DNA from: Heterodontus francisci
Lineage: Eukaryota
NCBI RefSeq assembly: GCF_036365525.1
Contig: NC_090413.1
Span: forward strand, 26,226,142-26,290,141
Direction: 5' to 3'
Length of the DNA stretch: 64,000 nucleotides
The notes under the pieces were generated by a model that worked only from the letters and a program-made list of their open reading frames with translations, did no database searches and was not told the DNA's origin. The translations under genes were made by a program, and so were the position numbers. Shown piece after piece: positions 3,751 to 63,321 of this stretch (position 1 is the stretch's first letter; the number at the start of each line of letters is the position of its first letter).

Positions 3751-4221
3751 TAATCAGAAAAAGCACTAATATTAGAGACGTGAAACAAGCTAATCTGTTG
3801 GTTAGAGATTGGTGAATTTCCGCCTTACTAAGAGGCTGCCGAGCACCTGTTCAACATGGTAGAGGAAGTGGTTTGTGCTTTAATAAGACTGAGAGAGGCT
3901 GGGAGACATGACCTTTCCTAGTATTCCGCCAAGTCAAGAATAGGTTAAGGTACAAATAGTGACTGAAGGGAGGACAGAATCTACTCTAAAATCATAATGC
4001 AGGAAATATGCATTTAAAAGAAATATATAAATAATTCATCCTGCAAATCAGGAAGTCTAAATACATATAGAACACGTTAATCCTCACCACACAGAGAATT
4101 TAATAAATCCTGGCTTCAGTGGTGTGTAGATTACAGGGTACAACACTGGAACAGGAAGAGACCGATGTAGCACCATTCAATTAGATTATGACTGATCTGT
4201 ATCGAACTCTATCTACCTGCC

Positions 4222-4965
4222 TTGGGGAATTGATAGTGGATAATAAGGAGATGGCAGATGAATTGAACAGATACTTTGCATCGGTCTTCACTATTGAGGA
4301 TACAAGTGACATCCCAGTATTAGCTGTAAGTCAGGAAATGGGAGGGAGGAACTCAAGAAAATTACAATCACCAGAGAAGTGGAACTGAACAAATTGTTGG
4401 AGCTGCGGGCTGACAGGTCCCTGGGTCCTGATGGACTTCATCCTAGGATCTTAAAAGAAGTGGCTGGTATGATAGTTGATGCGGTAGTTTTAATTTTCCA
4501 AAATTCCCTACATTCGGGGAATGGGTGGCCTGTCTTACGAGGAAAGATTGGAAAGGCTAGGCTTGATTCTGCTGGAATGACTTGATTGAAACATATAAGA
4601 TCCTGAGGGGTCTTGACAGGGTGGATGTGGAAAGGATGTTTCCCCTTGTGGGAGAATCTAGAACTAAGGGTCACTGTTTAAAAATAAGGGGTCGCCCATT
4701 TAAGACAGAGATGAGGAGCAATTCTTTCTCTGAGAGGGTGGTGAGTCTTTGGAATTCTCTTCCTCAAAAGGCGGTGGAAGCAGAGTCTCTGAATATTTTT
4801 AAGGCAGAGGTAGATAGATTCTTGATAAGCAAGGGGGTGGAAGGTTATCGGGGGTAGGTGGGAATGTGGAGTAATCAGTTCAGCCATGGACTTATTGAAT
4901 GGTGGAGCAGGCTCGAGGGGCCGAGTGGCCTACTCCTGCTCCTAATTGGTCTGGTCATATGTTCT
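4222..4965 (+). mobile_element. CR1 LINE fragment with large internal deletion, inserted into an older antisense CR1 tail
   Basis: GPDGLHPRILKE is joined directly to C-terminal TYKILRG...VVSLWNSLP. Flanks 4145-4220 and 4965-5035 read as two halves of an antisense CR1 3' end. Confidence 0.8.
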
Positions 4966-5196
4966 ATAACCCTTAATATCATTGCCTAACAAAAATCTTT
5001 CAATCTCATTTTTGAAATTTTCAACTGACCCAGCACAGGCACGAGGGGAAGAATGGCCTCTTTCTATGTTAAGTGATATGTTGGTATAATTTCATTTGGT
5101 AAATACTGTATAGATGGTAATTCTAAATTTAATAATCGCAAACAAATACTAAAAAGAGTGAGTAAATTAGACAAACTGCACATTAAAATTAATGAG

Positions 5197-5202
5197 TTTA
5201 TT
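5197..5202 (-). terminator. Putative polyadenylation signal (AATAAA) of PGLYRP2
   Basis: tttatt on the + strand about 80 nt downstream of the predicted stop codon. Confidence 0.55.
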
Positions 5203-5279
5203 GGTAACCCAGTAGCCATGACTGTGTCAGTGTAGCTCCCCTTTTGTTTGTGGGATGGTCTCCATGTTTGATAATCTCT

Positions 5280-5348
5280 CTACGGGTTGTTCTTCAGTGA
5301 CTGCGACCCATCAGTGCTCACAGTGGTTCCATTGGCTTGTTCAACCTC
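5280..5348 (-). CDS. PGLYRP2: PGLYRP2 coding exon 5 (terminal; EVEQANGTTVSTDGSQSLKNNP*)
   Basis: Acceptor tatctcccatatcag| before 5348, phase 0 matching the exon-4 donor, TAG at 5282-5280, AATAAA at 5202-5197 downstream. The peptide itself is not recognisably conserved. Confidence 0.65.
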   Translation of the reverse strand, partial: EVEQANGTTVSTDGSQSLKNNP

Positions 5349-5714
5349 CTGATATGGGAGATACAGATCAAAGGGTTGGAATTATGTTTTCTTGTATTCT
5401 GTCCTCACAATGAGTCTCAGCTCAACCTTGGAAAAGTGCCCCCTGCGGCAGCTGTATGGCATCTCTCCATTTGCCACACCAGTCAACTCACGGCCTCTCC
5501 AGTTGGCAATTGGTTTTGAGGAACCAGCAGCTGGGTTGAGATTGCTCAGATTCATTTCGTATAGGATCCTTCCAGCCAATAGACAGAAGGGAATCATGGG
5601 CCTCGGTGGGATTTCAGGCCAGAGGTAAAACCGGTGCCATTCACTCCCTGTATCCTTATCCTCACATCAAGAAACATAAAGGTAGAATCTCCTGTAGCAG
5701 TCATTCAACATAAT

Positions 5715-6320
5715 GGGCTGAATTTCACCGACCCGTTGACGCCGCGGGTCGTGGCGTGGGGGCCGGTAAAATGCTGCGAGGAGAGGCCCGCCTTGACCCA
5801 CGACGTTGAGAAGGGCCCGCCGCATATTATCAGCAGAGGGGGGACCTCGGTGCGCAACCCCCCCTCCCACACCGCCTGACGGTGGGGCCCTTCATCTCCA
5901 TATGCAGATCGGCACTAAATATATGCAAAATGACTTACTCCGCACAGAGTTCCGAGGCCAGAACCTGGTGGGGAGGAGGGAGTAATAAAAACTACAGGGT
6001 GGGAGGGGTGGGGAAGTGGTAAAAACAAATGTAATTAGTTGTGTGAATGGTGGGAAGGGGTTAGAGGCCAAATGTTAGAAGGCTGGAGGAGAAAGTTCAG
6101 GTATTTGAGAAATCAATGGATGGGCATTTCAGGCAATGAGATGCCGGGAACGCGGAGGCCGCCCCTACACGTCAACGGGGGTGGGTCCTCCGCCCCCACT
6201 GTTTAGATGAGTCCCCCCACGAAATATCACGGGGGCTCCTCGGCGGCTGCTGAATGCAGGCACCCCGCTGAGCTCAAACGGCGCAGCCAGGCAGCCCCGC
6301 GCCCGAGTACAATTCAGCCC
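5715..6320. mobile_element. CpG-rich non-autonomous DNA transposon (PIF/Harbinger-like MITE)
   Basis: Terminal inverted repeats GGGCTGAATT (5715) / AATTCAGCCC (6320), flanks aat/aac (possible 3-bp TSD), GC-rich subterminal regions, no coding capacity. Confidence 0.55.
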
Positions 6321-6813
6321 AACGTCTATTGGAGACTCAATCCAGTTGCTGTGACAGAGAAACCTTTTGGGATTCGCCACTCGACTGAGGTCTGAGATGA
6401 TGGGCAGGACAGGAAAATTTGAGGCTGACCCACAAAAATGAAAGATTGAACCTGCCTTCAATTGAATGCAGCTTGCAAGCACCAATACTGATGTTGCTCA
6501 TTTCCTGACATTGATAGAGTTAAACCCTGCCTGGCATTTGAAGGATGCCATTCAATGCAGGATTGGGGTAGAAGGTAGTTAAAAATGCAAAAAAAAAACT
6601 TGATTGGCTGAGCCACAAGATACAACATGTGGGGAGATGCTGGAGGTCATTTGGGTTCTTGTGAAAAGGAGGAGGAACTGGAGTCGGGCACTCAGCACTT
6701 GTGTCACATTCCTTAATGTGTTAGTTTAATAAACTCTTTAACATGAATAGGTTAATAAGGTCACTTGGTTTGATGCCAAATCCCAGAGATCACCCAATGG
6801 GAAACACTATTAC

Positions 6814-7108
6814 CTTAAAGGCCTCCCAGGTCTTGATTTCATTGAAGAACATTTCCCCTGGACACGAGGTTGGTCTGTGTTGCCGATGCCCCTGGACGGC
6901 GTAATCACTGACTATTCTCTTGTGAATCACAGCACACTTCATGAAATTTTCTTTCACTAGTTCCATTGCAGCCTGGTCTGGGAGTTCCGAGGTGTAGTTA
7001 CCGATAAAACTCACTCCGTATCCATTGGAGTTTTGCCCTTTGGTGTGGGCTCCTCTCCAGAGCCATCCGCGACCTTCGTAAATGTATCCGTCGGAGCCTG
7101 CTACAAAG
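6814..7108 (-). CDS. PGLYRP2: PGLYRP2 coding exon 4 (amidase domain C-terminal half)
   Basis: ctgtag| acceptor, TTTAAG|gtaata donor; FVAGSDGYIYEGRGWLWRGAHTKG...GVSFIGNY...GHRQHRPTSCPGEMFF is a classic PGRP amidase sequence. Confidence 0.95.
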
Positions 7109-7154
7109 CTACAGAGACCGTTCCAGAAATTAGCACAGCAAATAATAAGCTCAC

Positions 7155-7387
7155 TGGGTAGCGCTCTCTCCTCTAAATCAGGAGTTGTGGGTTTAAGTCC
7201 CACTCCAGAAACCTGAGCACAAAATCCTAGTGCAGTATTGAGGGAAGGCTGCACTGTCAGAGGTGCTGTTTTTCAGAAGAGATGTTAAACTGAGGCATGG
7301 GCATGAAAGATTCCATAATGTTATTTTGAACAAGAACTAGAATTCTCCTGACATCCAGGCCAAATTTATCCCTCAACCAACATCACT
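7155..7387 (+). mobile_element. Deu-domain-type SINE 5' part (continues at about 9278-9330 after a CR1 insertion)
   Basis: ...ccctcaaccaacatcact | aaaacagatgatcttgtcattatcacatt is contiguous in the uninterrupted copies at 15826-15850 and 44700-44745. Confidence 0.8.
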
Positions 7388-9277
7388 GGATGTCAAGGGA
7401 TATAGAGGATTGGATAAGGAAAAAAAAAGGAGGCTTATGGCAGGTTCTGGGGGCTGAAAACAGCGGAGGCTACAGAGGAGTATAGAAAGTGTGGGGGGGG
7501 GGATACTTAAAAAAGTAATTAGGAGAGCGAAGAGGGGGCGTGAAAAAACACTGGCGGACAAGATAAAGGAAAATCCCAAGGCGTTTCATAAGCATATTAA
7601 GGGCAAGAGGATAACCAGGGAAAGAGTAGGGCCCATTAGGGAGCAAAGTGGCAATCTGTGTGTGAAGCCGGAGGACGTAGGTGAGGTTTTAAATGATTAC
7701 TTTTCATTTGTGTTCACTATGGAGAAGGATGATGTAGGTGTAGAGATCAGGGAGGGGGATTGTGATATACTTGAACAAATTAGCATTGAAAGGGAGGAGG
7801 TATTAATGATTTTAGCGGGCTTAAAAGTGGATAAATCCCCTGGCCCAGGTGAGGTGTATCCCTGTCTGTTATGTGAGGCAAGGGAGGAGATTGCAGGGGC
7901 TCAGACACAAATTTTCAATCACAGGAGAGGTGCCAGAGGACTGGAGGACAGCGAATGTGGTACCATTGTTCAAGAAGGGTAGTGGGGATAAACCATGTAA
8001 TTACAGGCCAGTGAGTCTAACATCAGTGGTAGGGAAACTATTGGAAAAAATTCTGAAGGGTAGTCAGCATGGCTTTGTCAGGGGGAGATCATGTCGAACA
8101 AATTTGATTGAATTTTTCGAGGAGGTGACTAGGTGGGTAGATGAGGGTAAAGCGGTTGATGTAGTCTACATGGACTTCAGTAAGGCTTTTGATAAGGTGC
8201 CACATGGGAGATTGGTTAAGAAGGTAAGAGCCCTTGGGATCCAGGGCAATTTGGCAAATTGGATCCAAAATTGGCTTAGTGGCAGGAGGCAGAGGGTGAT
8301 GGTCGAGGGTTGTTTTTGCAATTGGAAGCCTGTGGTGGAAGATTGGTGCTGGGACCCTTGCCGTTTGTAGTGTACATTAATGATTTAGACGTGAATATAG
8401 GAGGTATGATCAGTAAGTTCGCAGATGACACGAAAATTGGTGGTGTCGTAAATAGTGAGGAGGAAAGCCTTAGATTACAGGACAATATAGATGGGCTGGT
8501 AAGATGGGCGGAGCAGTGGCAAATGGAATTTAATCCTGAGAAGTGTGAGGCGATGCATTTTGGGAGGACTAACAAGGCAAAGGAATATACAATGGATGGT
8601 AGGACCCTAGGAAATACCTTGGTGTACTTGTCCATTGATCACTGAAGGCAGCCGCACAGGTAGATAAGGTGGTTAGGATGGCATATGGGATACTTGCCTT
8701 TATTAGCTGAGCCATAGAATATATAAGCAGGGAGGTTATGATGGAGGTGGACTATAGGAAGGATGTAATTGCACTGGAGAGGGTGCAGAGGAGATTCACC
8801 ATGATGTTGCCTGGGCTGGAGCATTTCAGCTATGAAGAGAGACTGGATAGGCTAGGGTTGTTTTCCTTAGAGCAGAGAAGGCTGAGGGGGGACCTGTTTG
8901 AGGTATATAAAATTATGCGGGGCATAGAAAGGGTAGATAGGAAGAAACTTTTTCCCTTAGCGGGGGGGGAGGGGGGGGGGGGTCAATAACCAGGGGGCAT
9001 AGATTTAAGGTAAGGGCAGGTGGTTTAGAGGGGATTTGAGGGAAAAAAATTTCACCCAGAGGGTGGTTGGAATCTGGAACACACTGCCTGAAAGGGCGGT
9101 AGAGGCAGGAACCCTCAAAACATTTAAGAAGTATTTAGAAGGGCACTTGAAATGCCGTAGCATACAAGGCTACGGGCCAAGTGCTGGAAAATGGGATTAG
9201 AATAGATAGGTGCTTGATGGCCGGCATGGACACGATGGGCCAAAGGGCCTGTTTCTGTGCTGTATAGCTCTATGACT
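7388..9277 (+). mobile_element. CR1 LINE family A, 5'-truncated, degenerate RT ORF2
   Basis: PEDWRTANVVPLFKKG, NYRPVSLTS, DFSKAFDKV, KFADDTK; 3' tail gggcctgtttctgtgctgtatagctctatgact; frameshifts and deletions. Confidence 0.95.
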
Positions 9278-10834
9278 AAAACAGATGATCTTGTCATTAT
9301 CACATTACAACAGTAACTAGGCTTCAAATATACTTAAATTTGAGTAATTTCCTGTAGGGGTTTTGATGACACACTTTCAGTTTTCTCCAGGGTATTGCAT
9401 ATTAATCACAGCTTTAATGTTTCCGTGTGAAGTCCCTTGTATTAACAAATCACTTTCTTTTTTTATCCTTTGTGGATGGGGACACAGCCCAGCCTTTTCC
9501 CCCCCAAACCCTGCAAATTATTTTCTTCAAGTACATGTCCAGTTGCCTTTTAAGAGTTTCCTATGAAATCTGATCCCACCTCCTTTTCTAGTCGTGTGAT
9601 CCAGATCTTAACAAAACCTCTGTGTGGAAACATTTCCCTTTATTCCCTGTCTAGTTGTTGTGCCAATTATTTTACATCTGTAACATCTGGTTAGCAACCC
9701 ACTAGAGGAATCAGTTTCTCCCTACTTGCTCTATCAAAGCCCCTTTGAATTTTAAACACCTTTATTGCGTCTCACCATAACCTTCTCTGCTCTAGGGAGA
9801 ACAATCCCAGCTTCTCCAAATAATTGAACTCCCTCATCCATGGCATCAGCCTGGTAAACCTCCTCTGCACCATCTCTAAGGTGTCCTTCTTCAAGGATGG
9901 TGCCCAGAATTGCACAGATTTGTAAAGGTTTTCCATACTATGAAAAGATATAGAGGCACTGAAGAAGGTACAAAGATTTACTCGAATATTGCTGGACTGA
10001 GAGGTGATAGCTATCAGGAAAGATTGAACAGATTTCTCTGGAAGACAGAAGATTGAGTTGGGGGGGCGGGGCGGTGACCCTGATAGAGGTCTTGTGTTAA
10101 GGTTTGTCTTCCTTGTCTTATATTCAATGCCAAGATTTACAAAGCCAATTATCTAACACATTTTCTTGACCATCTTATCAACGTCCCCTGCCACTGTGAA
10201 GAATTTGTGAATGTGCACCCCATATACTAGGGGAATCCATGCGGACTGGGAAAGGGACATGGGGGGTTGCAGGTGGGCCATTTAACTCCTTGCCTTGCTG
10301 AACCCAAGTTTAAGTATTAATGGCAATCAATAGCTCTGATTCTGGGAGCTTATCCTTGTGGTGAGAGTGGGTGACACTGGGCAGGGAAACATCAGCTGCT
10401 GCTCCTCTTCAAATGGATAATGGAGAACAGTCCAGTTTCCATCTCCTGCATTGTCAACCCTTTCATTTTGTATCTGTGCCCCGCACCCACCCACCCCTAA
10501 CCGCCCACCACCCACCTCCCCCCCCGACCGTTTCCTCTCCCACTTCCCCCTCACTAGCCGCCTCCTTAGAAACCAGGAGCATCAAAGTTTTTAAAATGGG
10601 ATTTATGTTTTGAAAGGTACTTGTGCCAAATATAATAGATAATTGATACATAAGGGAAAGTAGGTAAATACATGACGGAGAAAGGAATAACAGGACATGC
10701 CGATAGGGTGAGATGAAGAGGGGTGAGAGGAGGCTCGTGTGGAGCAGAAACGCTGGTCGGGCCGAAGTGGCCTGTTTCTGCGCTGTACATTCTGTGTAAC
10801 TCCTCAGTACCTAATGTGAGGCTGGGCTCCTTAC

Positions 10835-11045
10835 TTGTAACCAATGTCATCCCATTGTCGCTCCTCCTGATGAAAACGTTGCATGCTCCTCATGTCTGCC
10901 GCACAGTCCTGAAAACTGGTGCAGGGTCGGCTTGGCTCATATGTATGGTGGATGTAAACAAAGCCTAGGGGCAGTGACAGGTTCACTGGAGAGCCTTTGT
11001 AGGGTTTGGCAGCCCACATACAGCGAGGAATGATGGCAGGGCATT
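10835..11045 (-). CDS. PGLYRP2: PGLYRP2 coding exon 3 (amidase domain N-terminal half)
   Basis: tttttgcag| acceptor, TACAA|gtaagg donor; CPAIIPRCMWAAKPY...FVYIHHTYEPSRPC...MRSMQRFHQEERQWDDIGY. Confidence 0.95.
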
Positions 11046-11114
11046 CTGCAAAAAACAGTGAGTATACACTGAAACTACATATCAAAACAAAAGGCACAGA
11101 CAACATCGAAAAAA

Positions 11115-11579
11115 CGAGAGACTTGCATTTATCTTATGCTTTTCATAAGCTCAGGTCACATAGTGTTTCACAGTCAATGAAGCACTTTTGAAGTGTAGTC
11201 ACTGTTGCAATGTAGGAAACGCGACAGCCAATTTGTGCACAGCAAGATCCCACAAACACCAATGTGATCATGATTGGATAATCTGGTTTACTGATGTTGG
11301 TTGAGGACTAAATATTAGCCAGGACACCAGGGAGAGCTGCCCTGCGCTTCTTCCAAATAGCACTTTAAGATTTGTTACATTTACCTAAGAAAGCAGACTA
11401 GGCTTCAGTTTAACGTCTCATGCTAAGGATGACACCTTTGACAGTGCAGCACTCCCTCAGTACAGCGCTGGAATGTCGGATGACACCTTTGACAGTGCAG
11501 CACTCCCTCAGTACTGGATTGTCAGCCTAGAGTTTTGTGCTCATGTCTCTGGAGCAAGGCTTGAATCGATAACCTTCTA

Positions 11580-11610
<31 letters not shown>

Positions 11611-11620
11611 GTGGTTGACA
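11115..11620 (-). mobile_element. Deu-domain-type tRNA-derived SINE, near full length, with internal duplication
   Basis: Reverse complement of the head (ggctcagtgggtagcactcttgcctctgag) and tail (taaatgcaagtct). Confidence 0.8.
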
Positions 11621-13400
11621 TATGTTAAGGACATAAAAAATAGGAGCTGGAGTAGCCCTTAGGGCCCTCTCGAGCCTGCTCCACCATTCAATAAGATCAT
11701 GGCTGATCTGCTACATCAACTCCACTTTCCTGCCTTATCCTACGTTGATATCCAGCCTCCTTTTGAATGAGTCAAGGGTTTCTGCCTAAACTACCCTTTC
11801 AGGCCTTGGTTTGTGTCTAGGCTTTCACTCACTGTGTTGCTCCATTTCCAGGGTCCCTGTGTCCTCTGTAATGTCATTTCCCCCTCTTCAGGAGCTGCAA
11901 CACCACCTGGTATCTCTGCAGGGCCGCTGGTGGGCTCCCAATAGCTGGCGGGAATCCAGCTGAGACTCTGATGGGAATACGGAATGACCCCTGACTCAGG
12001 AAGCTGGGCTGGGGTCACGCCCAGATCGGGATGACAGGAAAAGGTCCTAATCCTTTCAGGAACTCCAGGTTAGACCAGACAACGGCTGACATCAGACCAG
12101 AGCAGCAGATAGTTTGGTGAAATCAGTCAGGGTTCCCCTGTTCCAGACTGGTATCTGTTGGGCAATGTATGAGATCAGGATTGCCTGTGGACAGACGACA
12201 AAGGAAATTGATGCAAAAAGTAATTTAAAAAGTAATAGTGTAGGTGTACATGGCACAAGACAAGTTAAAGAGACTTCTGATGTGAATGGATTAAAACTGT
12301 GAGATGTAAAATGGATCATCAGTTCACCATTACCCATCTTACACTATTGCAGAATTTCAAAATGTCCCCTTTTGAGTTAGTAATGGTTGGATGTCATTCA
12401 ATCTAGGTTAATGTTATGGCAGCAAGAATGAAAAAAGATCCTTCCTCTGATGTAACGTCGAATCTGAGCAAGAGCATTTCGCATGAAGACGTGAGGAGCA
12501 GGTTTAAGGACAAGCACCGGAATAATCAGTTTACACGATGTATACAACTGGACGGAATAAACGCAGAAGCAAAATAATAGCATTTTGAACTGGGTGACTG
12601 AGTAGAAGTCAGGTCACCTCTCTGAAGCTGAGTTTGTAGCACGACTAGATGATGGGATGATGCCTTCTCTCCTTGTCGGTAGGAAGACGAGATCGGGCAG
12701 TCTCACCCAAGCTTTACCTAGTGAGATACCAACCTTAGCTTGCTACAAATTGGCACTAATTTGGCAAAGAGGCCAAGGGGACACATGGTGCAGGAAATGG
12801 AACTGTCATGTTGGAATAATGAGAACAGCTCATTCAGCTTAAATGACCCTTTGGCACTGACACTGGGAGCCAAAAGCAGATGAACATACCATTCCCTAAC
12901 ACTTACATCACTCATTTTAATGAGCATAGAATGTCAGTACAATATTTCGAAGAGAAATTACATGTATTAGGTGGTGCCTTTTACACAGATATATACAGTG
13001 AATGCCCTGAGTTTTATTTCATTGGTTTCAATGTAAGTGGCATTGCAAGTTAAAAGGAACCTCAAATGTTTTCAATTAAATTAAAGCCTTAAGCTTGCTT
13101 CCTACTAGCCAAGGGAGTGGTGTCACCGTCCCACACAATCATCAGGAAGCTGCACTCACAGCAAATGTGGAGTAAAGATAGGGCTGTAACTGAACCGTGC
13201 TCCTTGAGATCACATCTCCTTTCTGGGGTTGAGAAATTACCCTTTATAATTGGTCTGTACTGCAGCCCATTTGTTTCAATGGGACCTATCAACTGCCTCT
13301 CCGTCACTAATATTACCAAAGTGGCACAGCATTGAGGGGATCCAACCCATCCTTGGGAGGTTAAAGTTCCACAATATTAGAAAGACACCAATCTATACAT

Positions 13401-13757
13401 GGGCGGCACAGTGGCGCAGTGGTTAGCACCGCAGCCTCACAGCTCCTGCAACCCAGGTTCAACTCTGGGTACTGCCTGTGTGGAGTTTGCAAGTTCTCCC
13501 TGTGTCTGCGTGGGTTTTCTCCGGGCGCTCCGGTTTCCTCCCACAAACCAAAAGACTTGCAGGTTGATAGGTAAATTGGCCATTATAAATTGCCCCTAGT
13601 ATAGGTAGGTGGTAGGGAAATATAGGGACAGGTGGGGATGTAGTAGGAATATGGGATTAGTGTAGGATTAGTATATATGGGTGGTTGATGGTCGGCACAG
13701 ACTCGGTGGGCCGAAGGGCCTGTTTCAGTGCTGCATCTCTAAAACTAAAACTAAAAA
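13401..13757 (+). mobile_element. HE1-type tRNA-derived SINE
   Basis: Pol III A box TGGCGCAGTGG, B-box-like GGTTCAACTC, 3' tail gggccgaagggcctgtttcagtgctg matching CR1 family A, terminal (CTAAAA)n. Near-identical copy at 43980. Confidence 0.9.
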
Positions 13758-14099
13758 CCTTTGTTAAGTCTAACCTTACTTTGTGTTGACAAAATTTCTG
13801 GTCACACTTTTCTGTCAACATTTAGCCCAGATGATTGCCATGCCAACATTTCCCATTCAGTTTTCCTGTCAATAGTCATGATGTAGGCCTTGGCCACTAT
13901 TCGGCACTTTGTGGTAAGTTCTTAAGCCCTCAATTATTTCACAATTTTGTGTATAACTAGAACGTGTATTCATTAACTGACAGTTGCAACGGCCCAGGAA
14001 ATCTATTATAAAATGGGAGTATTTTGAATAAATCTTTTACCTGCAATTGTTCAACTTGTTTTTTGAAGGGAGTGCCAGTCATTCGAATAATTTACTTAC

Positions 14100-14936
14100 C
14101 GAGATAGTTATGATGAAACTGTTTAACTCCCTGCTGGGAAACCTTTCTGAAGATGTTATAGTCGAGGTGTTGGAGAATTGAATCATTCCTGATGTGGTTG
14201 TACAGGTAAACTACACTTATAACCTGATTGGTAAAATTACTGAGGTCAACCTTTGCTTCAAAGTTTTTACGACGTGCATTTGCCTTTAAACCTGGTTGCC
14301 CCTGAGCCTCACTATAGTAATCTCTCAGCACAGCACTGAGTTTGGGCAGTGGATGTCGGCACTCTGTTAAGAAGTTTCCCAGGATAAAGCCATCCATGCC
14401 TCCATTAATCAAAGCATTTGTGGCCAGGGACCAAGGACCTGACCCAGTGAAAACTTGAGGAGAAGTCACATTGTCCCAACAACCGTCAGGTCCCAGTAAC
14501 ACTTGGCTTTTGTTCAAATAATGGGCCACAAATGCTAATCCTAAATCCTTGGCTAACGTTAGTGCATAAAGATTATCAACTGGGCCTTCCGGCCAAGGGT
14601 ATTCTACATTTCTCTTCAGTCCGGCTTCAATTCCTGCAATAAGATGCCCGACAGCAATTGTCGTTCCATCTGGAGTGAGGACCACACCACGTTCAGCCGA
14701 AGAGCCGACCTCATGGTTCATGACATCTTTAATAAAAGTTTGTCGGTCTTCAGATAGAGCTTCCAGCGGGGCAGAGGATGTTGGGGTTTCAACGAGGAGG
14801 AGGCGATGGAAATCCTGGTCAGATGTTTGCAGACTTCGTAGGATAGCAGTAACATTGAGAATAGTGAATACAGGATCATGACCTTCCAACTCCTCGATGA
14901 CGCTCAAAACATCATTTAGGTGATAGTCTGGTGCCG
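14100..14936 (-). CDS. PGLYRP2: PGLYRP2 coding exon 2 (large N-terminal domain exon, 837 nt)
   Basis: ttctttccag| acceptor, CTCG|gtaagt donor; GVVLTPDGTTIAVGHLIAGIEAG, GPDGCWD and NALINGGMDGFILG motifs typical of PGLYRP2. Confidence 0.93.
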
Positions 14937-15589
14937 CTGGAAAGAAGAACAAACAAGTGCAGACTTTCAGAAAGACACAGAATGACCAGCAATGTGTTGT
15001 CACAAATACAAGGATGACTGGATATCCTCCTCTAAGCGATGCAGTGAGGAGTGTCCCATAATTTGATGTGTCATGAAAAGCCGTGCCAAATTTCCACCAT
15101 CACTAATATGATTAATGCCCTCAGCTAAACTCTCCATTGTCACAAAAGCCCTCCATTTGCAAAAAATAAACCATATCCGGATAATGGAAGAAACCTGCCC
15201 GCACAAATTCAAGCAGAAAGCATGACAAAGACTAATGCAAGCTGACATGTGTTTCTAGGGTGAAGCACCCCTCTGGCTTTAGATTACACTGAGAAACTAC
15301 AAGATCTTCCCTCACAAGGCTAACAGCATTTTCAGTGTCATTTGATGTATTACTTTCTTGGCACGTACTCCAGTCTGAGAGGTAATCCTCCCTCACCTCT
15401 GACATTCCAAACTCTTTCTCCCCATTACAATTTTGCTACTTATTGGTATTTATTGATACTGGTATAGTTGTTCCTTCTCCAAAGTTCTACTATTCTTCTT
15501 CAGCCCAAAGTACTGCTCTCCTCTGTTTCTTCACCGTGTTGAAATCAAGACTAGTGCTTCTCTTATGCTAATTTATTCTAATTCAGGAG

Positions 15590-16620: not shown

Positions 16621-18513
16621 CTGATCCTGATTGGTAAACTCTGTCTGAAATGTTTAACCATTTTGACGATAGTTTAAAGGGTAATTGATTTTTTTTGGGA
16701 CCCATTTACAGGGCTTTAGTCGGTGCAATGCCCACTAGAGCAAATCCCTGGCCTTGCCCCCTCTCTATCTTTGTAACCTTTTCCAGCCCTACAACCCTCC
16801 GAGATCTCCGCACTCCTCCAACTCTGGTCTCTTGAATGTCTCTGATTTTCATCATTCCAGAATTGGCGGCTGGACCTTCAGCTGCTGAGGCCCTAAGCTC
16901 CAGAATTTCCTCCCTACGCCTTCCGCACTCTTTTCCACCCTTAAGGCACTCCACAAAGCCACCTCTTTGGCCAAGGGCCAGGGTCACCTGCCCTAATATC
17001 TCCTTATGTAGCTGGGTGTCAAATTTTTCTTTATAACACTCCTGTGAAGCGCCTTGGGGCATTTTACTAAGCTAAAGGCGCTTTATAAATGCAGGTTGTT
17101 GTGACATTCAGTGATGATTGGTGATGTTGCAGTTCTTTGCTATGGCCACAGGGTTGCACTGCAGAACGATTCCTAGTTTCTCAAGTCCCACAAAGTTTTC
17201 AGTAACTTTTCAATTGTAGTCAGAGCACGAAAACTGTCATTCCCATTGTTTATTAAACACTTCATTATCACCTACAACTTCATTAGGTAATGCTTTGGTG
17301 ACATACTTTATTTGCTGTTTTTATGGTGCGTTTGGCAGCAATTGAGTAGAATCAGTCCAGAAACAGGCTGTTTGGCCCAACTGATCTATGCCACCTCCCA
17401 CCCTACTTCATCTAATCTTAATTTGAGTAGAGAAAAAGTTGTTCAATTAAAGCATCGCAACTAATCGTGGCTCAAATACTCAGACTTTTACTGATTGTTT
17501 GTTGGGACAGGGAAATAGAGTCATTTAGGACAAAGAAAGAGGCCATTCAGTCCATCGAGTCCTTGACAGCTCTCCACGGAGATAAGCTGTCAGTCCCACT
17601 TCCCGGCTCGATCCCTGCAGCCCTGCGAGTTTATTTTTCTTGACTCCCTCTTGAAGTCAGTGATTGTCTCTGCTTCCAGCACCCTTGTGGGCAGTGAATT
17701 CCAGGTCATTACTACCAGCTGCATAAAAAAGGGCTTCCTCATATTCCCCCTGCATCTTTTTCCCAATAGTTCAATGTGTGTCCCCTAGTCCTTGTACCAT
17801 TTGTTAATGGGTTAGTCCTTGTCATACATAGCTAAGCCTGTCATAATCTTGTACACTTTTATTAAATCTCCCCTCAAACCCAGCATTTCCAACCTAACCT
17901 TGTAAATAAAATCCTCCATCCCTACAACCATTCTGGTAAAGGAGAAGGGAAAAATTCAACCCATTTTCCAAATTGGAAATTGTAATTTTAAATGCTCTCC
18001 ACTAGCTCTGGAGGAAGTGCAGAGAGTGATAATGGAATCTGCTCAGAAATCACAGTTTATACTAACACATGCTTGGTATAGATTCTGGTGTCATAAAAAT
18101 AGCATTCACACACCTAGACGTATATAGTGGATTTCATGTGGTGTAGCACATGTTAAGTCAAGAGAAACCTTTTGCAACTGGTGGGGAATTAGATACAGAA
18201 TAACACTAGACATGCATCCCCAATTTTAATCGCTACACAATTGGCGGCCGTGCCTTCAGCTGCCTGGGCCCTAAAGCTCTGGAATTCCCTCTCTAAATCT
18301 CTCTGCCTCTCTACCTCTAATTTCTCTTTTAAGATGCTCCTTTACACCTACCTCTTTAACCAGGCTTTTGACCACCTGCCCTAATACTCCTGTGGAGTGC
18401 CTGGGGACATTTTACTATGTTAAAGGTGTTACACAAATGCATGTTTTGTAGCTGTTTTACAAGTTTTTTTTGATTTTACTGTAAGTAGACTTTGTACTTA
18501 AATTATCTAATTA

Positions 18514-19782
18514 ATGCAGGTGCAGGTACAGGCGGAGGTACAGGTACAGATGCAGATGCAACTACAGATGATGATACAGGTGCAGGTACAGATGCACATG
18601 CAGATGCAGATACAGATTCAGATGCAGGTACAGGTACAGTTACAGATGCTGATGCAGGTACAATTACAGGTGCAGGTACAGGTACAGGTGCAGATGCAGA
18701 TTCATGTACAGGGTACAGTTGTTGATGCAGGCGCAGGTACAGATGCAGAAGCAGATACAGATGTAGGTACAGGTACAGTGCAGGTACAGGTACAGATGCA
18801 GGTACATGTACAGTTGCAGATGCAGGAGCTGATACAGGTGAAGGTACAGATGCAGCTGCTGATGCAAGTGCAGGTACAGGTGCAGATGCAGGAGCTAATG
18901 CAGGTACAGATGCAGATGCAGGAGCTGATGCAGATACAGGTACAGATGCAGATGCTGATGCAGGCACAGGTACAGATGTAGATGCAGGTACAGATGCAGA
19001 TGCTGATGCAGGTACAGGTACAGATGCAGATGCAGGTGCTGATGCAGATACAGGTACGAATGCAGATGCTGATGCAGGTACAGATGCAGATGCTGATGCA
19101 GGTACAGGTACAGATGCAGATGCAGGTGCTGATGCAGATACAGGTACGAATGCAGATGCTGATGCAGGTACAGATGCAGATGCTGATGCAGGTACAGATG
19201 CAGATGCAAGAGCTGATGCAGATACAGGTGCAGTTGTTGATGTAGGCACAGGTACAGATGCAGAAGCAGGTACAGATGCAGATGCAATTGCAGGTACAGG
19301 TAGAGATGCCGATGCAGGTACAGATGCAGATGGAGATGCAGGTACAGGTACCGATGCAGATGCTGATGCAGGTACAGAGGCAGGAGCTGATGCAGGTACA
19401 GGTACCGATGCAGATGCAGGTACAGATGCAGGTTCAGGTACAGATGCAGATACAGGTGCAGGTAGAGATGCTGATGCAGGTACAGATGCAAATACAATTG
19501 CAGGTACAGATAGAGATACAGATGCAGGTACAGATGCAGATGCAATTGCAGGTAGAGGTAGAGATGCAGGTACAGGTACAGATGCAGATGGAGATGCCGA
19601 TGCAGGTACAGATGCAGATGCAATTGCAGGTACAGGTAGAGATGCTGATGCAGGTACAGATGCAGATGCAATTGCAGGTACAGGTAGAGATGCCAATGCA
19701 GGTACAGATGCAGATGGAGATGCAGGTACAGGTAGAGATGCTTTTTATTTGCAGGTACAGATGCAGATGCAATTGCAGGTAC
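18514..19782. repeat. Hexamer-based tandem array (RCAGRT units: GCAGGT/ACAGAT/GCAGAT/ACAGGT) with higher-order repeats
   Basis: Directly visible periodicity; exact 90-bp duplication 18981-19070 = 19071-19160. Confidence 0.97.
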
Positions 19783-19783
19783 A

Positions 19784-20007
19784 GGGAGTTGTGGGCCAGT
19801 CCGGCCAGCGAACTACACCTCCCGGCATGCAGCGGGCGGCACCCTAGCCTATCAGAGGGCGCGAGTGAGACTCCCAGCCAATGGACAGCGGGCGGAGGCG
19901 GCGCAAGCGCGCTGCTGCTTGAGGCGGAGAGTTGGCGGCGGGAGCCTTGGATACGGAGCGGCGGCGGATTCGGATCTGGATGCGGACACCGACCCAGCCC
20001 GGTCAGT
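19784..20007 (+). promoter_or_regulatory. SLC27A1: CpG-rich promoter and probable non-coding first exon of SLC27A1
   Basis: Dense CpG, ACTACACCTCCCGGCATGC (19812-19830), AGCCAATGG (CCAAT 19878-19882), GGGCGG boxes, donor CCG|GTCAGT after 20001. The ATG exon at 29744 begins with a splice acceptor, so an upstream exon is expected. Confidence 0.72.
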
Positions 20008-53093: not shown

Positions 53094-53203
53094 GCAATAT
53101 AGTTGGAGTGGGACAGTGCCTGCTGCATGGCCTGACTGTCGTGATCAAAAAGAAGTTCTCAGCCAGCCGATTCTGGGACGATTGCGTGAAGTACAACTGC
53201 ACG
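53094..53203 (+). CDS. SLC27A1: SLC27A1 coding exon 6
   Basis: ctgtcgacag| ... ACG|gtcagt; [37 protein letters not shown]. Confidence 0.96.
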
Positions 53204-53793
53204 GTCAGTGTTTACCAGCCTCATTCTGCTGACTTACTGGGGCTTCCTGCCCAGCATTCGCATCTCCTCCTCGCCCTCTTTGGGGGTTTCCTGCCTGTTT
53301 GCTAACAATGCCCACAGCAGCAGGACTGCGCTGAGCCAGCGCTTTAAATAAGAGCATATGAAATAGGCACAGGAGTAGGGCATAAGAACCCTCAAGTCTG
53401 CTCTGCCTTTCAATAAGATCATAGCTGATCTCCCTCAACTCCACGTTCCTACCTGATCTCCATATCTCTTGATTCCCATTGTGCTCTCTAATCTATCAAT
53501 CTCAGTCTTGAATATAATAAATGACAGAGCATCCACAGCCCTCAGGTAGTGAATTCTAAAGATTCACAACCCTCAATTAAGAAATTCCCCTTCATCTCAG
53601 TCCTGAATAGCTGACCCCTTATCCTGAGACTATACCCCCTAGTTCTGGACTCTCCAAATAGGGTGGAAGAACGAACAGGATAGTTTGGCCATTCTGTACA
53701 ATTCACTAACCTCAGCAAGCTGAACTCAGCGTTGTCATTGCATTGGGCTGAGGCTAAATTACTTGCTGCCATCGAATCAAACATCCAATATAT

Positions 53794-53832
53794 GAGTTCT
53801 GATGAAAGGTCACAGACCTGAAATGTTAACTC
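53794..53832 (+). ncRNA. Minimal type I hammerhead ribozyme motif within a Penelope-like repeat (about 53790-53895)
   Basis: GAGTT-CTGATGA-A-AGGTC(ACA)GACCT-GAAA-TGTT-AACTC: stem I GAGTT/AACTC, full core CUGAUGA and GAAA, stem II AGGTC/GACCT, loopless stem III, GUU cleavage triplet. Confidence 0.7.
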
Positions 53833-54219
53833 TTTCTCTCTCTCCACCGATGCTGCCAGACCTGCTGACTACTTCCAGCACTTTCTGTTTTTAATCCGAT
53901 ATTTTAGGTTTTCTCGCCTTCTTTCCTGCTGTTGCTAATTCTGAGGTACAGCTCCTCGCGTAGTCCAACCCAAGTAACCCCTCATAGTGCCCGAGCTGAG
54001 AGATTGAGTCTCAGAATAAAGCTGCTATCATTGGTTAGAGATTTACAACAGTCCATACAAGCAGCAGTGGCAAAACTCCTGCAACACAGAGGCTAGCAGT
54101 AGCACTCCTGCCACCAGTGATGCTGGCATCCGTAAGCTCACCACAGAACATTAATGACACCGGGTGAATCACAAAGGCAAAAAATAAAGTGGGCAAGTGT
54201 ATTCTTGCTCAAAGGCAAT

Positions 54220-54875: not shown

Positions 54876-55085
54876 ATTGTTCAGTACATCGGGGAGATCT
54901 GCCGCTACCTCCTCAACCAGCCGGTCCGCCATGCCGAGTCTCAGCACCGTGTCCGCATGGCCATAGGTAATGGATTGAGACCCTCCGTCTGGGAGTCCTT
55001 CACCAATCGCTTCCACATCAAGCAGATGGCAGAGTTCTACGGGGCCACCGAGTGCAACTGTGCCATCGCCAACCTCGATGGCAAG
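54876..55085 (+). CDS. SLC27A1: SLC27A1 coding exon 7
   Basis: cccttcag| ... AAG|gtgggt; [13 protein letters not shown]...GNGLRP...[18 protein letters not shown]. Confidence 0.96.
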
Positions 55086-58738: not shown

Positions 58739-59355
58739 CTGGAATTTGGAATACACTCAGCTGGTCAGGCAGCAGCTGTGGAGAGGGGAACAGTGTTAAT
58801 ATTTCGGGTTGATGACCTTTTGTTAGAACTGAAAGATACTGGCAATGAACAGCTTGTAATTTGAGGGGTACAGTAACATCGTGGTTATGTTACTGGGCTA
58901 GTAATCCAGAGGCCTGGGCTAATAACCTCGAGTTGTAAAAACCCATCTGGTTCATCTGGAAATTGCCGTCCTTACCCGGGCTGGCCTCTATGTCCCTCAA
59001 GACCCACAGCAATGTGTTTGATGTTTAACTGCCTTCTGAAATGGCCTAGTGATCCACTCAGTTGTATTCAAGAAGGTGTCTCACCCCCACCACCTCCAGA
59101 GCAATTAGGGATGGGGAATAAGTGCTGGCCTTGCCAGCGACAGCCACGTCCCGTGAATGATTTTTTAAAAAAAGTGTCCCTATCCCTGTACTTGCTTAAC
59201 AACCATTAATCTCTAGCATTTTCCAGTTCTGACGAGAAGTCACCAAACTGAAATTTTAACTGTTTCTCTCTCCACAGATGCATGCCTGTCCTGCTGAGTG
59301 TTTCCAGCATTTACGGTTTTGATTTTAGACTTCCAGCATCCTCAGTATTTTTTCC
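58739..59355. mobile_element. Inverted pair of Penelope-like repeats (58739-58831, 59224-59355) with a SINE between them
   Basis: Arms are reverse complements of each other and homologous to 53790-53895. Confidence 0.6.
58865..59172 (+). mobile_element. tRNA-derived SINE with a LINE family B tail
   Basis: tRNA-like head (taacatcgtggttatgttactgggctagtaatccagagg); 3' end gcaattaggggatggggaataagtgctggcc...cccgtgaatga matches 40851-40910. Confidence 0.65.
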
Positions 59356-59397
59356 GTTTTCTCTTTCACTGACGTTTCTGTTCTGTTCTCTTGCTAG

Positions 59398-62646: not shown

Positions 62647-62942
62647 CTGCTAGTCTTACTTTATCCTTCCCACCCCTCGCTCTGTCTGCCAGTACAGTGA
62701 AATCAAAGTCCTTGTCCTCTAATCACTCCAGTGGCCTTGCTGTGCCCTGTGTTTCCACCATCTCCTCCAAACCTCTTGTCCCTCACGGTCTTTCAACTCT
62801 GGTCTTCCTGTGCAGTGGCTCCTCCACCCCAGAATTTTCAGCCCCTGTGATGTCCGAATGCTGACCAAGGTAATAAATGTCCTTCACAGCTGCTGTGTTT
62901 GCATTGTGGCCCATTTATACAGTGCAAGTGTGGCGATCCTGT

Positions 62943-63097
62943 AAACACTCGGCAGGCTTGGCAGCATCTGGAGAGAGAAACAGAGTTAATGTTTCAGGTC
63001 GATGACCTTTTATCAGAACCACTGATTAAAAATCGCCAACCTGAAACATTACCTCTGTTCCTCTCTTCCCAGGTGCTGCCAGGCCTGCTGAGTGTTT
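62943..63097. repeat. Fold-back (inverted) pair of Penelope-like repeats with degenerate hammerhead motifs
   Basis: Arms about 62943-63005 and 63033-63097 are imperfect reverse complements separated by a loop of about 27 nt. Confidence 0.75.
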
Positions 63098-63321
63098 CCA
63101 GCATTTTCTCTTTTTATTTCAGATTTGTAGCACCCGACACAATATTTTGCTTTAGTGGAGATCCTGTGATTGTTTAGGGATTGATTTTCTTAATAGCCAC
63201 TCTACAATGATCTTGTCTGTGGAAGCGACTGCATTCAGCACAATGTGAATGTTTGAATTTTAATTAATGAATATGAAGATGCAAACTAAAGCCGGGTAAT
63301 CAGATATTTGTATTGCTCCAG

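Follow-up and report, generated by a model that had tools for sequence, protein, structure and literature searches.

The closest described relatives of the motif reported here are the minimal hammerhead ribozymes (min-HHRs) in the pLTRs of metazoan Penelope-like elements (Cervera and De la Pena 2014, PMC4209133). As that paper describes them, they are type I motifs that lack a loop III and are palindromic at 15.2-16.2, with an extra base between positions 9 and 10.1 and a short stem I. They are dispersed by the thousand as single copies linked to truncated elements, and they also form inverted pairs. The family of the present motif shares these features, although in the present copy the stem III palindrome has decayed to AUGU. 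The differences lie in the number of copies, about 71,000 exact motifs in this genome versus the 4,000 to 9,000 cited in that paper for the coelacanth and Xenopus; in the start of stem II, which is A-U in the subfamily of the copy at 53795 instead of the G-C given there as usual; and in the youngest subfamily, which, unlike the min-HHR of that paper, has C at position 4.

Other systems were compared in the same way. The EN+ Penelope-like elements Neptune and Nematis (Craig et al. 2021, PMC8557442) are described with a single frame for RT plus GIY-YIG at the C terminus, a Cys motif in the linker, partial-tandem pLTRs, inverted 5'-truncated copies and a 30-40-bp tail, and the same organization was found here. 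The PAc Poseidon element of Anolis (Frangieh et al. 2024, PMC11167929) likewise has, as reported, two 3' end positions past the hammerhead and an uncut template RNA, which our insertion ends also suggest. It belongs to a different clade, however, and its ORF starts inside the ribozyme, whereas here the ORF starts about 140 nt past the cut site. The domesticated intronic hammerheads of amniotes, RECK and C10orf118/CTCL (PMC6155905, PMC3088659), are likewise of type I and on the sense strand of an intron; those papers present them as few, conserved across species and active in vitro. The motif at 53794 is unlike them: it belongs to a repeat, it lacks loop-loop contacts and a stem III loop, and it shows no sign of selection. 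Non-LTR retrozymes are defined as tandem units that each carry a type I hammerhead (bioRxiv 10.64898/2026.07.22.740005, a preprint that sampled one chondrichthyan); the present copy is single, and its flanks are unrelated. No shark-specific description of this repeat family was found in the literature; the supplementary lists of PMC4209133 or of the bioRxiv preprint may include one. The motif at 53794 adds one copy to a ribozyme type and a retroelement class that are both already known. Very probably, it is the pLTR hammerhead of an abundant Penelope-like retrotransposon, carried in a 99-bp stub and likely inert in its host intron.

The hammerhead motif and its host gene

The window, which is the whole 64,000-nucleotide stretch of DNA that was analysed, contains the motif on the plus strand between two exons that both have AG/GT ends.

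53794..53832, plus strand: minimal type I hammerhead motif (sequence, descriptor with shuffles, folding)
53094..53203, plus strand: SLC27 (FATP) exon upstream of the motif, counted as exon 6
54876..55085, plus strand: SLC27 (FATP) exon downstream of the motif, counted as exon 7

The host gene gave a Pfam AMP-binding match, and its best PDB match was human FATP2 (E 4e-19). By these sequence matches, the gene belongs to the SLC27 (FATP) family and may be SLC27A1 or SLC27A4. The original prediction had placed the motif in intron 6 of SLC27A1. The family assignment stood, and the number 6 fits the series of exons that was located, which is without exon 1; for this count, the exons were compared with the exon sizes of human FATP1. 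Upstream of the SLC27 gene, minus-strand exons of a peptidoglycan-recognition amidase gene, presumably PGLYRP2-like, were seen at 6793-15099 (Amidase_2 match for 6793-7272, minus strand, E 1.9e-10). A short-period tandem repeat of about 1.3 kb, in which most frames are open, lies at 18503-19800.

Within the motif, stem I is formed by 53794-98 paired with 53828-32, and the core CTGATGA occupies 53799-805. It is completed by one extra (bulged) A, by stem II, whose 5 bp enclose a loop of 3 nt, by GAAA at 53820-23 and by TGTT. Stem III is a loopless AUGU, and the cut is predicted after 53827. The conserved core of the PLE minimal hammerhead (CUGAnGA, GAAA and UH) is complete at 53794-53832, stem I has 4/4 pairs and stem II 5/5, and the extra base between 9 and 10.1 is present. 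All the parts that the original prediction had listed were thus found in place by sequence and descriptor, and its assignment of the motif to the minimal type I class, which has a palindromic stem III, held. The G at 53794 is foreign to the element, as elements with upstream sequence carry C there; since it lies outside the element, the inherited stem I is 4 bp long.

A generic minimal-hammerhead descriptor was run on both strands of the window, with 53794-53832 as the sole site, and it gave 0 sites in 100 dinucleotide shuffles. Therefore, the motif is not a chance match. An Rfam scan returned 7 matches at E<=10, none of them to a hammerhead family. Among 58 sampled copies, stem III was ACGU in 35, whereas the copy at 53795 has AUGU, which pairs with itself via two G-U pairs only. 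The dinucleotide within stem III was CG in these 35 copies, CA in 12 and TG in 2, which supports the earlier proposal that stem III had undergone CpG decay.

The parent element and its subfamilies

Eight of the 19 best other genomic copies extended upstream into a common stretch that translates to an RT thumb and a GIY-YIG. A GIY-YIG profile matched one of five such upstream fragments, with an E value of 6e-4 that was under the curated cut-off, and the other four gave no match. The genome was searched with the RT/GIY-YIG protein fragment; this gave 93,026 candidates, of which 150 were scored, and the repeat was found downstream in 25 of the 25 loci fetched by that protein, one of them being the query locus itself. 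Three of six long-frame loci (L046, L047 and L048) had a 905-codon frame between motif-holding repeats. The flanking repeats were 99.5% identical in L046 and L048, and the third locus is a tandem. The frame matched RVT_1 (E 6e-6) and GIY-YIG (E 0.002), both below the curated cut-offs, and DKG and YIDD motifs were visible, together with a C-x4-C-x2-C linker before the GIY-YIG motif. The motif is thus located in the pLTR of a Penelope-like element, and the link to such elements that had been proposed earlier was borne out by a repeat that flanks an RT and GIY-YIG frame.

The single ORF with RT and with GIY-YIG at its C terminus is that of EN+ Penelope-like elements, with profile matches that are below the cut-offs. 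Direct or partial tandem pLTRs (L046-L048), inverted truncated copies and two clusters of 3' ends, as expected for this group, were also found, and 42 of 120 copies were in head-to-head pairs. A Cys-motif linker between RT and the endonuclease is reported to mark Neptune and Nematis elements (PMC8557442), and the Zn-finger-like Cys motif of these clades is present in the 905-codon frame. On the sequence of this frame, the parent is a Neptune/Nematis-type Penelope-like element, which may belong to either clade. At another locus (L051), a truncated copy of the element was seen within tandem repeats whose period is about 71 bp.

The family is very numerous. Exact motif patterns, which leave stem III free, occurred 31,865 times in the genome with a U4 core and 39,483 times with a C4 core, and the reversed controls gave 0. 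A profile search for copies, in which scores of 30 or more were kept and the 16 weaker of 136 matches were discarded, found 9 copies in 200 kb chosen regardless of content and 111 copies within 18 myosin and ion-channel genes, of which 1.4 Mb was scanned, or 120 in 1.6 Mb in total. Extrapolation gives a copy number of roughly 270,000 to 480,000.

The mean divergence was 3.6% in the C4 subfamily (22 copies) and 12.6% in the U4/A-U subfamily to which the 53795 copy belongs (25 copies); on these sequence divergences, the former is young and the latter is older. The first pair of stem II, 10.1-11.1, was A-U in 24 of 58 copies, G-C in 19, G-U in 11 and other in 4. This covariation suggests that the element retained the fold as it evolved, the changes being subfamily events and not independent counts. 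U4C has been reported to reduce in vitro hammerhead activity (PMC3088659). Core position 4 is C in the subfamily that is both the youngest and the largest, yet this subfamily amplified well.

Ends of the insertion and origin of the stub

The insertion that carries the motif has the following features.

53795..53893, plus strand: end repeat, 5'-truncated to a pLTR stub, from the older U4/A10.1-U11.1 subfamily of a Penelope-like retroelement (92-95% identity to the best dispersed copies)
53783..53791, plus strand: left copy of an apparent 9-bp target-site duplication (flanks read by eye)
53894..53902, plus strand: right copy of the apparent target-site duplication (flanks read by eye)
53794..53794, plus strand: extra G before the element's first base, possibly cap-derived (upstream-extended elements have C; G and T counts before +1)

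The insertion is 99 bp long, with the motif as its first 38 bases, and over positions 3-99 the stub departs in 8 places from the majority sequence of 25 copies sampled from its subfamily. The two copies of the target duplication are identical at 8 of 9 bases, with one mismatch, and three extra bases, the last of which is G, stand before the element's first base when the flanks are read by eye.

The ends of other copies were then compared. Among 78 single copies, 29 reached more than 25 nt upstream (26 of these 100 nt or more), 22 started at -3..+5 and 7 between -100 and -4. When two A/T bases came first, the base before +1 was G in 1,593 copies and T in 598 (2.7-fold), although T is expected to be the commoner flank base. 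Starts at +1 numbered 5,274 versus 1,965 at -2, a comparison that is suggestive only, with chance matches inflating the second figure. The 3' ends clustered near +97-105 and +131-133, with counts partly limited by the length of the reference.

Penelope is reported to have an internal TATA-less promoter in its pLTR (PMC2377424), and the anole protein is reported to prime at two internal sites matching the tail (PMC11167929). We propose that the element RNA would start at the motif's first base, within an initiator-like YCAGTTC, and that the reverse transcriptase would prime internally about 100 or 133 nt downstream, as it does in vitro for the anole element. Run-off at the capped 5' end of the uncut RNA would then leave a stub that carries an extra G and is flanked by a target duplication. 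Judging from the insertion ends, the stub was likely made by run-off copying of capped RNA that had not been cut. Part of the start pattern could instead come from head-to-head junctions or from a reverse transcriptase that stalls at the folded motif. An initial excess of G/GA had also been considered as evidence of a cap, and it was dropped because head-to-head junctions give the same letters.

Starts at the cut site were considered as a mark of cleaved templates, as opposed to run-off on uncut RNA, and this idea was rejected. Such starts showed no excess, with 705 matches versus 667 in the control two bases downstream. Of 30 cut-site-start loci inspected by eye, 3 to 4 had unrelated flanks and most were internal deletions or fold-backs, and about 8 of the 30 loci in a control set had unrelated flanks. 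Fold-back junctions were seen in 7 of 30 loci (L213, L215, L221, L223, L224, L225 and L228); in these, the first four bases of the inverted copy coincide with the 3' strand of stem I, as if stem I had provided the microhomology. Apparent starts at +31..+33 often abutted another repeat inserted at TTAA, in a sample read by eye. In several copies (L070, L077, L078 and L120), a different repeat with similar ends interrupts the sequence at the TTAA next to the cut site, and this interruption mimics starts at the cut site.

Cleavage, splicing and host selection

Four further stub copies lie in the same SLC27 gene, two of them sense (59225 and 63022) and two antisense (58747-58830 and 62936-63019); the antisense copies had been overlooked earlier.

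58747..58830, minus strand: antisense stub in intron 10, core decayed
59225..59350, plus strand: another sense stub, in intron 10, with the core retained and stem II broken; its end lies about 45 nt upstream of the exon 11 acceptor
62936..63141, 62936-63019 on the minus strand and 63022-63141 on the plus strand: head-to-head decayed stub pair in intron 11, forming a long hairpin

The original prediction had named two further sense copies. For the one at 59225-59261, the core was indeed kept, but stem II has only 2/5 pairs; the other, at about 63020-63055, is decayed as proposed and has lost G8. An Rfam match to MIR8643 (44 bits against a gathering threshold of 135) corresponds to the inverted stub pair at 62936-63104 and was set aside as sub-threshold.

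As a monomer, the 53794 copy has no stem III able to form, and its loop II is 3 nt long. The stable stem III or tertiary contacts that a domesticated intronic hammerhead has for monomer activity were not found. Single minimal motifs were reported to remain uncleaved and dimers to be cleaved weakly (PMC4209133), and the anole motif to be cleaved only with the element's protein, the uncut RNA being the main template (PMC11167929). With the dimer geometry of PMC4209133, the partner's core would cut the 53827 site in a double hammerhead. By nearest-neighbour estimates, which leave out tertiary contacts and proteins, a double hammerhead of the 53794 copy was predicted at -11.2 kcal/mol, whereas two monomers came to -19.0 kcal/mol. 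When stem I was taken as 4 bp, the dimer energy was -6.8 kcal/mol for AUGU, -10.9 kcal/mol for a natural ACGU copy and -14.9 kcal/mol for a young copy. The local pairing probabilities of stems I and II were 0.93 and 0.94, respectively, in 60-nt windows and 0.19 and 0.52 in 200-nt windows. As a counterpoint to an inert reading, the conserved core positions are all intact, and the folding predicts local formation of both stem I and stem II.

Long-range dimeric cleavage had been put forward for the FATP pre-mRNA. Three sense copies do lie within 9.3 kb, and the ACAU of the 63022 copy is complementary to the AUGU of the 53794 copy. However, the partner ribozymes that would be needed are faulty, with 2/5 stem II pairs at 59225 and no G8 at 63022, and neither copy passes the minimal-hammerhead descriptor. 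The 63022 copy is, in addition, locked in a hairpin (62936-63104) predicted at -106.8 kcal/mol, and cofolding of the 53794 copy with either one yielded no hammerhead dimer. With no intact partner in the window and no selective trace in 111 intronic copies, it is extremely improbable that the sense copies form a long-range double hammerhead that regulates this pre-mRNA. Lacking such a partner, the FATP pre-mRNA would not be cut to a meaningful extent, and the 53795 copy would have decayed neutrally after its insertion.

Signs of host selection were sought in the 111 intronic copies from 18 genes, with the gene strand taken from clusters of Pfam exon matches and not from annotation. The results showed 50 sense and 61 antisense copies (p 0.34), or 30 and 41, respectively, when only single copies were counted (p 0.24); the sample is small and leans antisense, so that a strong bias would show and mild selection would not. 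Intact motifs were found in 7/50 sense and 8/61 antisense copies, and core mismatches amounted to 15/210 and 24/310, respectively. Nor was the core better conserved across copies than the rest of the repeat: identity was 92.9% in the core (0.929) versus 92.5% downstream (0.925; p 0.82; 58 of the 120 copies spanning the repeat). As far as these sequences tell, the 111 intronic copies bear no selective trace of a cleavage or splicing effect, with mild selection still possible; the splicing effect suggested earlier thus found no support in the 18 genes. In contigs of four sequencing runs, the repeat piled up at the stub, and none among those listed bridged the insertion. The same contigs showed the repeat family in organisms B and C, and the upstream exon in C.

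Cleavage in trans was weighed separately. The 53794 copy has an intact core, its U4 core is shared by about 32,000 copies, repeat-matching contigs were deep in two runs guessed to be RNA, and the anole ribozyme is reported to be protein-assisted (PMC11167929). On the other hand, AUGU costs 4.1 kcal/mol relative to ACGU in the dimer; the anole protein-binding region, by a cross-clade inference from that paper, lies in the start of the ORF and is missing from the stub; and intact sense copies are not depleted in introns. That this copy is cut at a low level in vivo, in trans with other copies or with element RNA and assisted by protein, is very unlikely. The genome has tens of thousands of core-intact hammerheads, many of them on the sense strand of introns. 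We regard it as just as doubtful that these are cut in trans as protein-assisted dimers when Penelope protein or RNA is expressed. If they were, retrotransposon activity would be tied to how host pre-mRNAs, the FATP transcript among them, are processed.

The stub might instead act via splicing or via double-stranded RNA, with inverted copies pairing across introns 6 to 11. In the family, a pyrimidine tract leads into an acceptor-like CAG at +55, with an ATG at +56; a donor-like GT follows at +75, and +170 is a strong acceptor that lies just before the long frame. Removal of the predicted 96-nt intron (+75..+170) would put the first ATG in frame with the long RT frame in 3/3 full-length copies (L046, L047 and L048). 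The position of this predicted intron resembles that of the 5' intron of Drosophila Penelope. Duplexes of the 53795 copy with the antisense copies were predicted at -104 and -109.5 kcal/mol, and the 59225 copy ends near the exon 11 acceptor. In the 53795 copy, however, the acceptor-like AG and the donor-like GT are both mutated (53848 and 53869), two of its 8 changes. The loss of both splice-like dinucleotides could reflect selection. Selection against splice signals in sense copies was, however, not seen: AG and GT were both kept in 30/46 sense versus 40/60 antisense copies (p 1.0). Since sense copies keep both as often as antisense copies do, the mutations in the 53795 copy look like chance. 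An action via splicing or double-stranded RNA is thus very improbable, though somewhat less so than cleavage in trans. As a separate observation, the sense stub in 59225-59397 still has the acceptor-like CAG, stops about 45 nt short of the exon 11 acceptor and has an antisense copy 400 nt upstream, which makes it a candidate for cryptic splicing or editing.

The original prediction had also allowed that the motif may be an inert fossil. This alternative is better supported than the regulatory one, its inertness being itself predicted. If intronic copies were cut in vivo, their numbers would make them a genome-wide layer of RNA processing in sharks, of which the tests here found no trace. For Penelope-like elements, the family offers a natural data set on an open question, namely, what the hammerhead does for them. 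Its value comes from the insertion ends, which suggest an RNA that begins right at the motif and is copied uncut.
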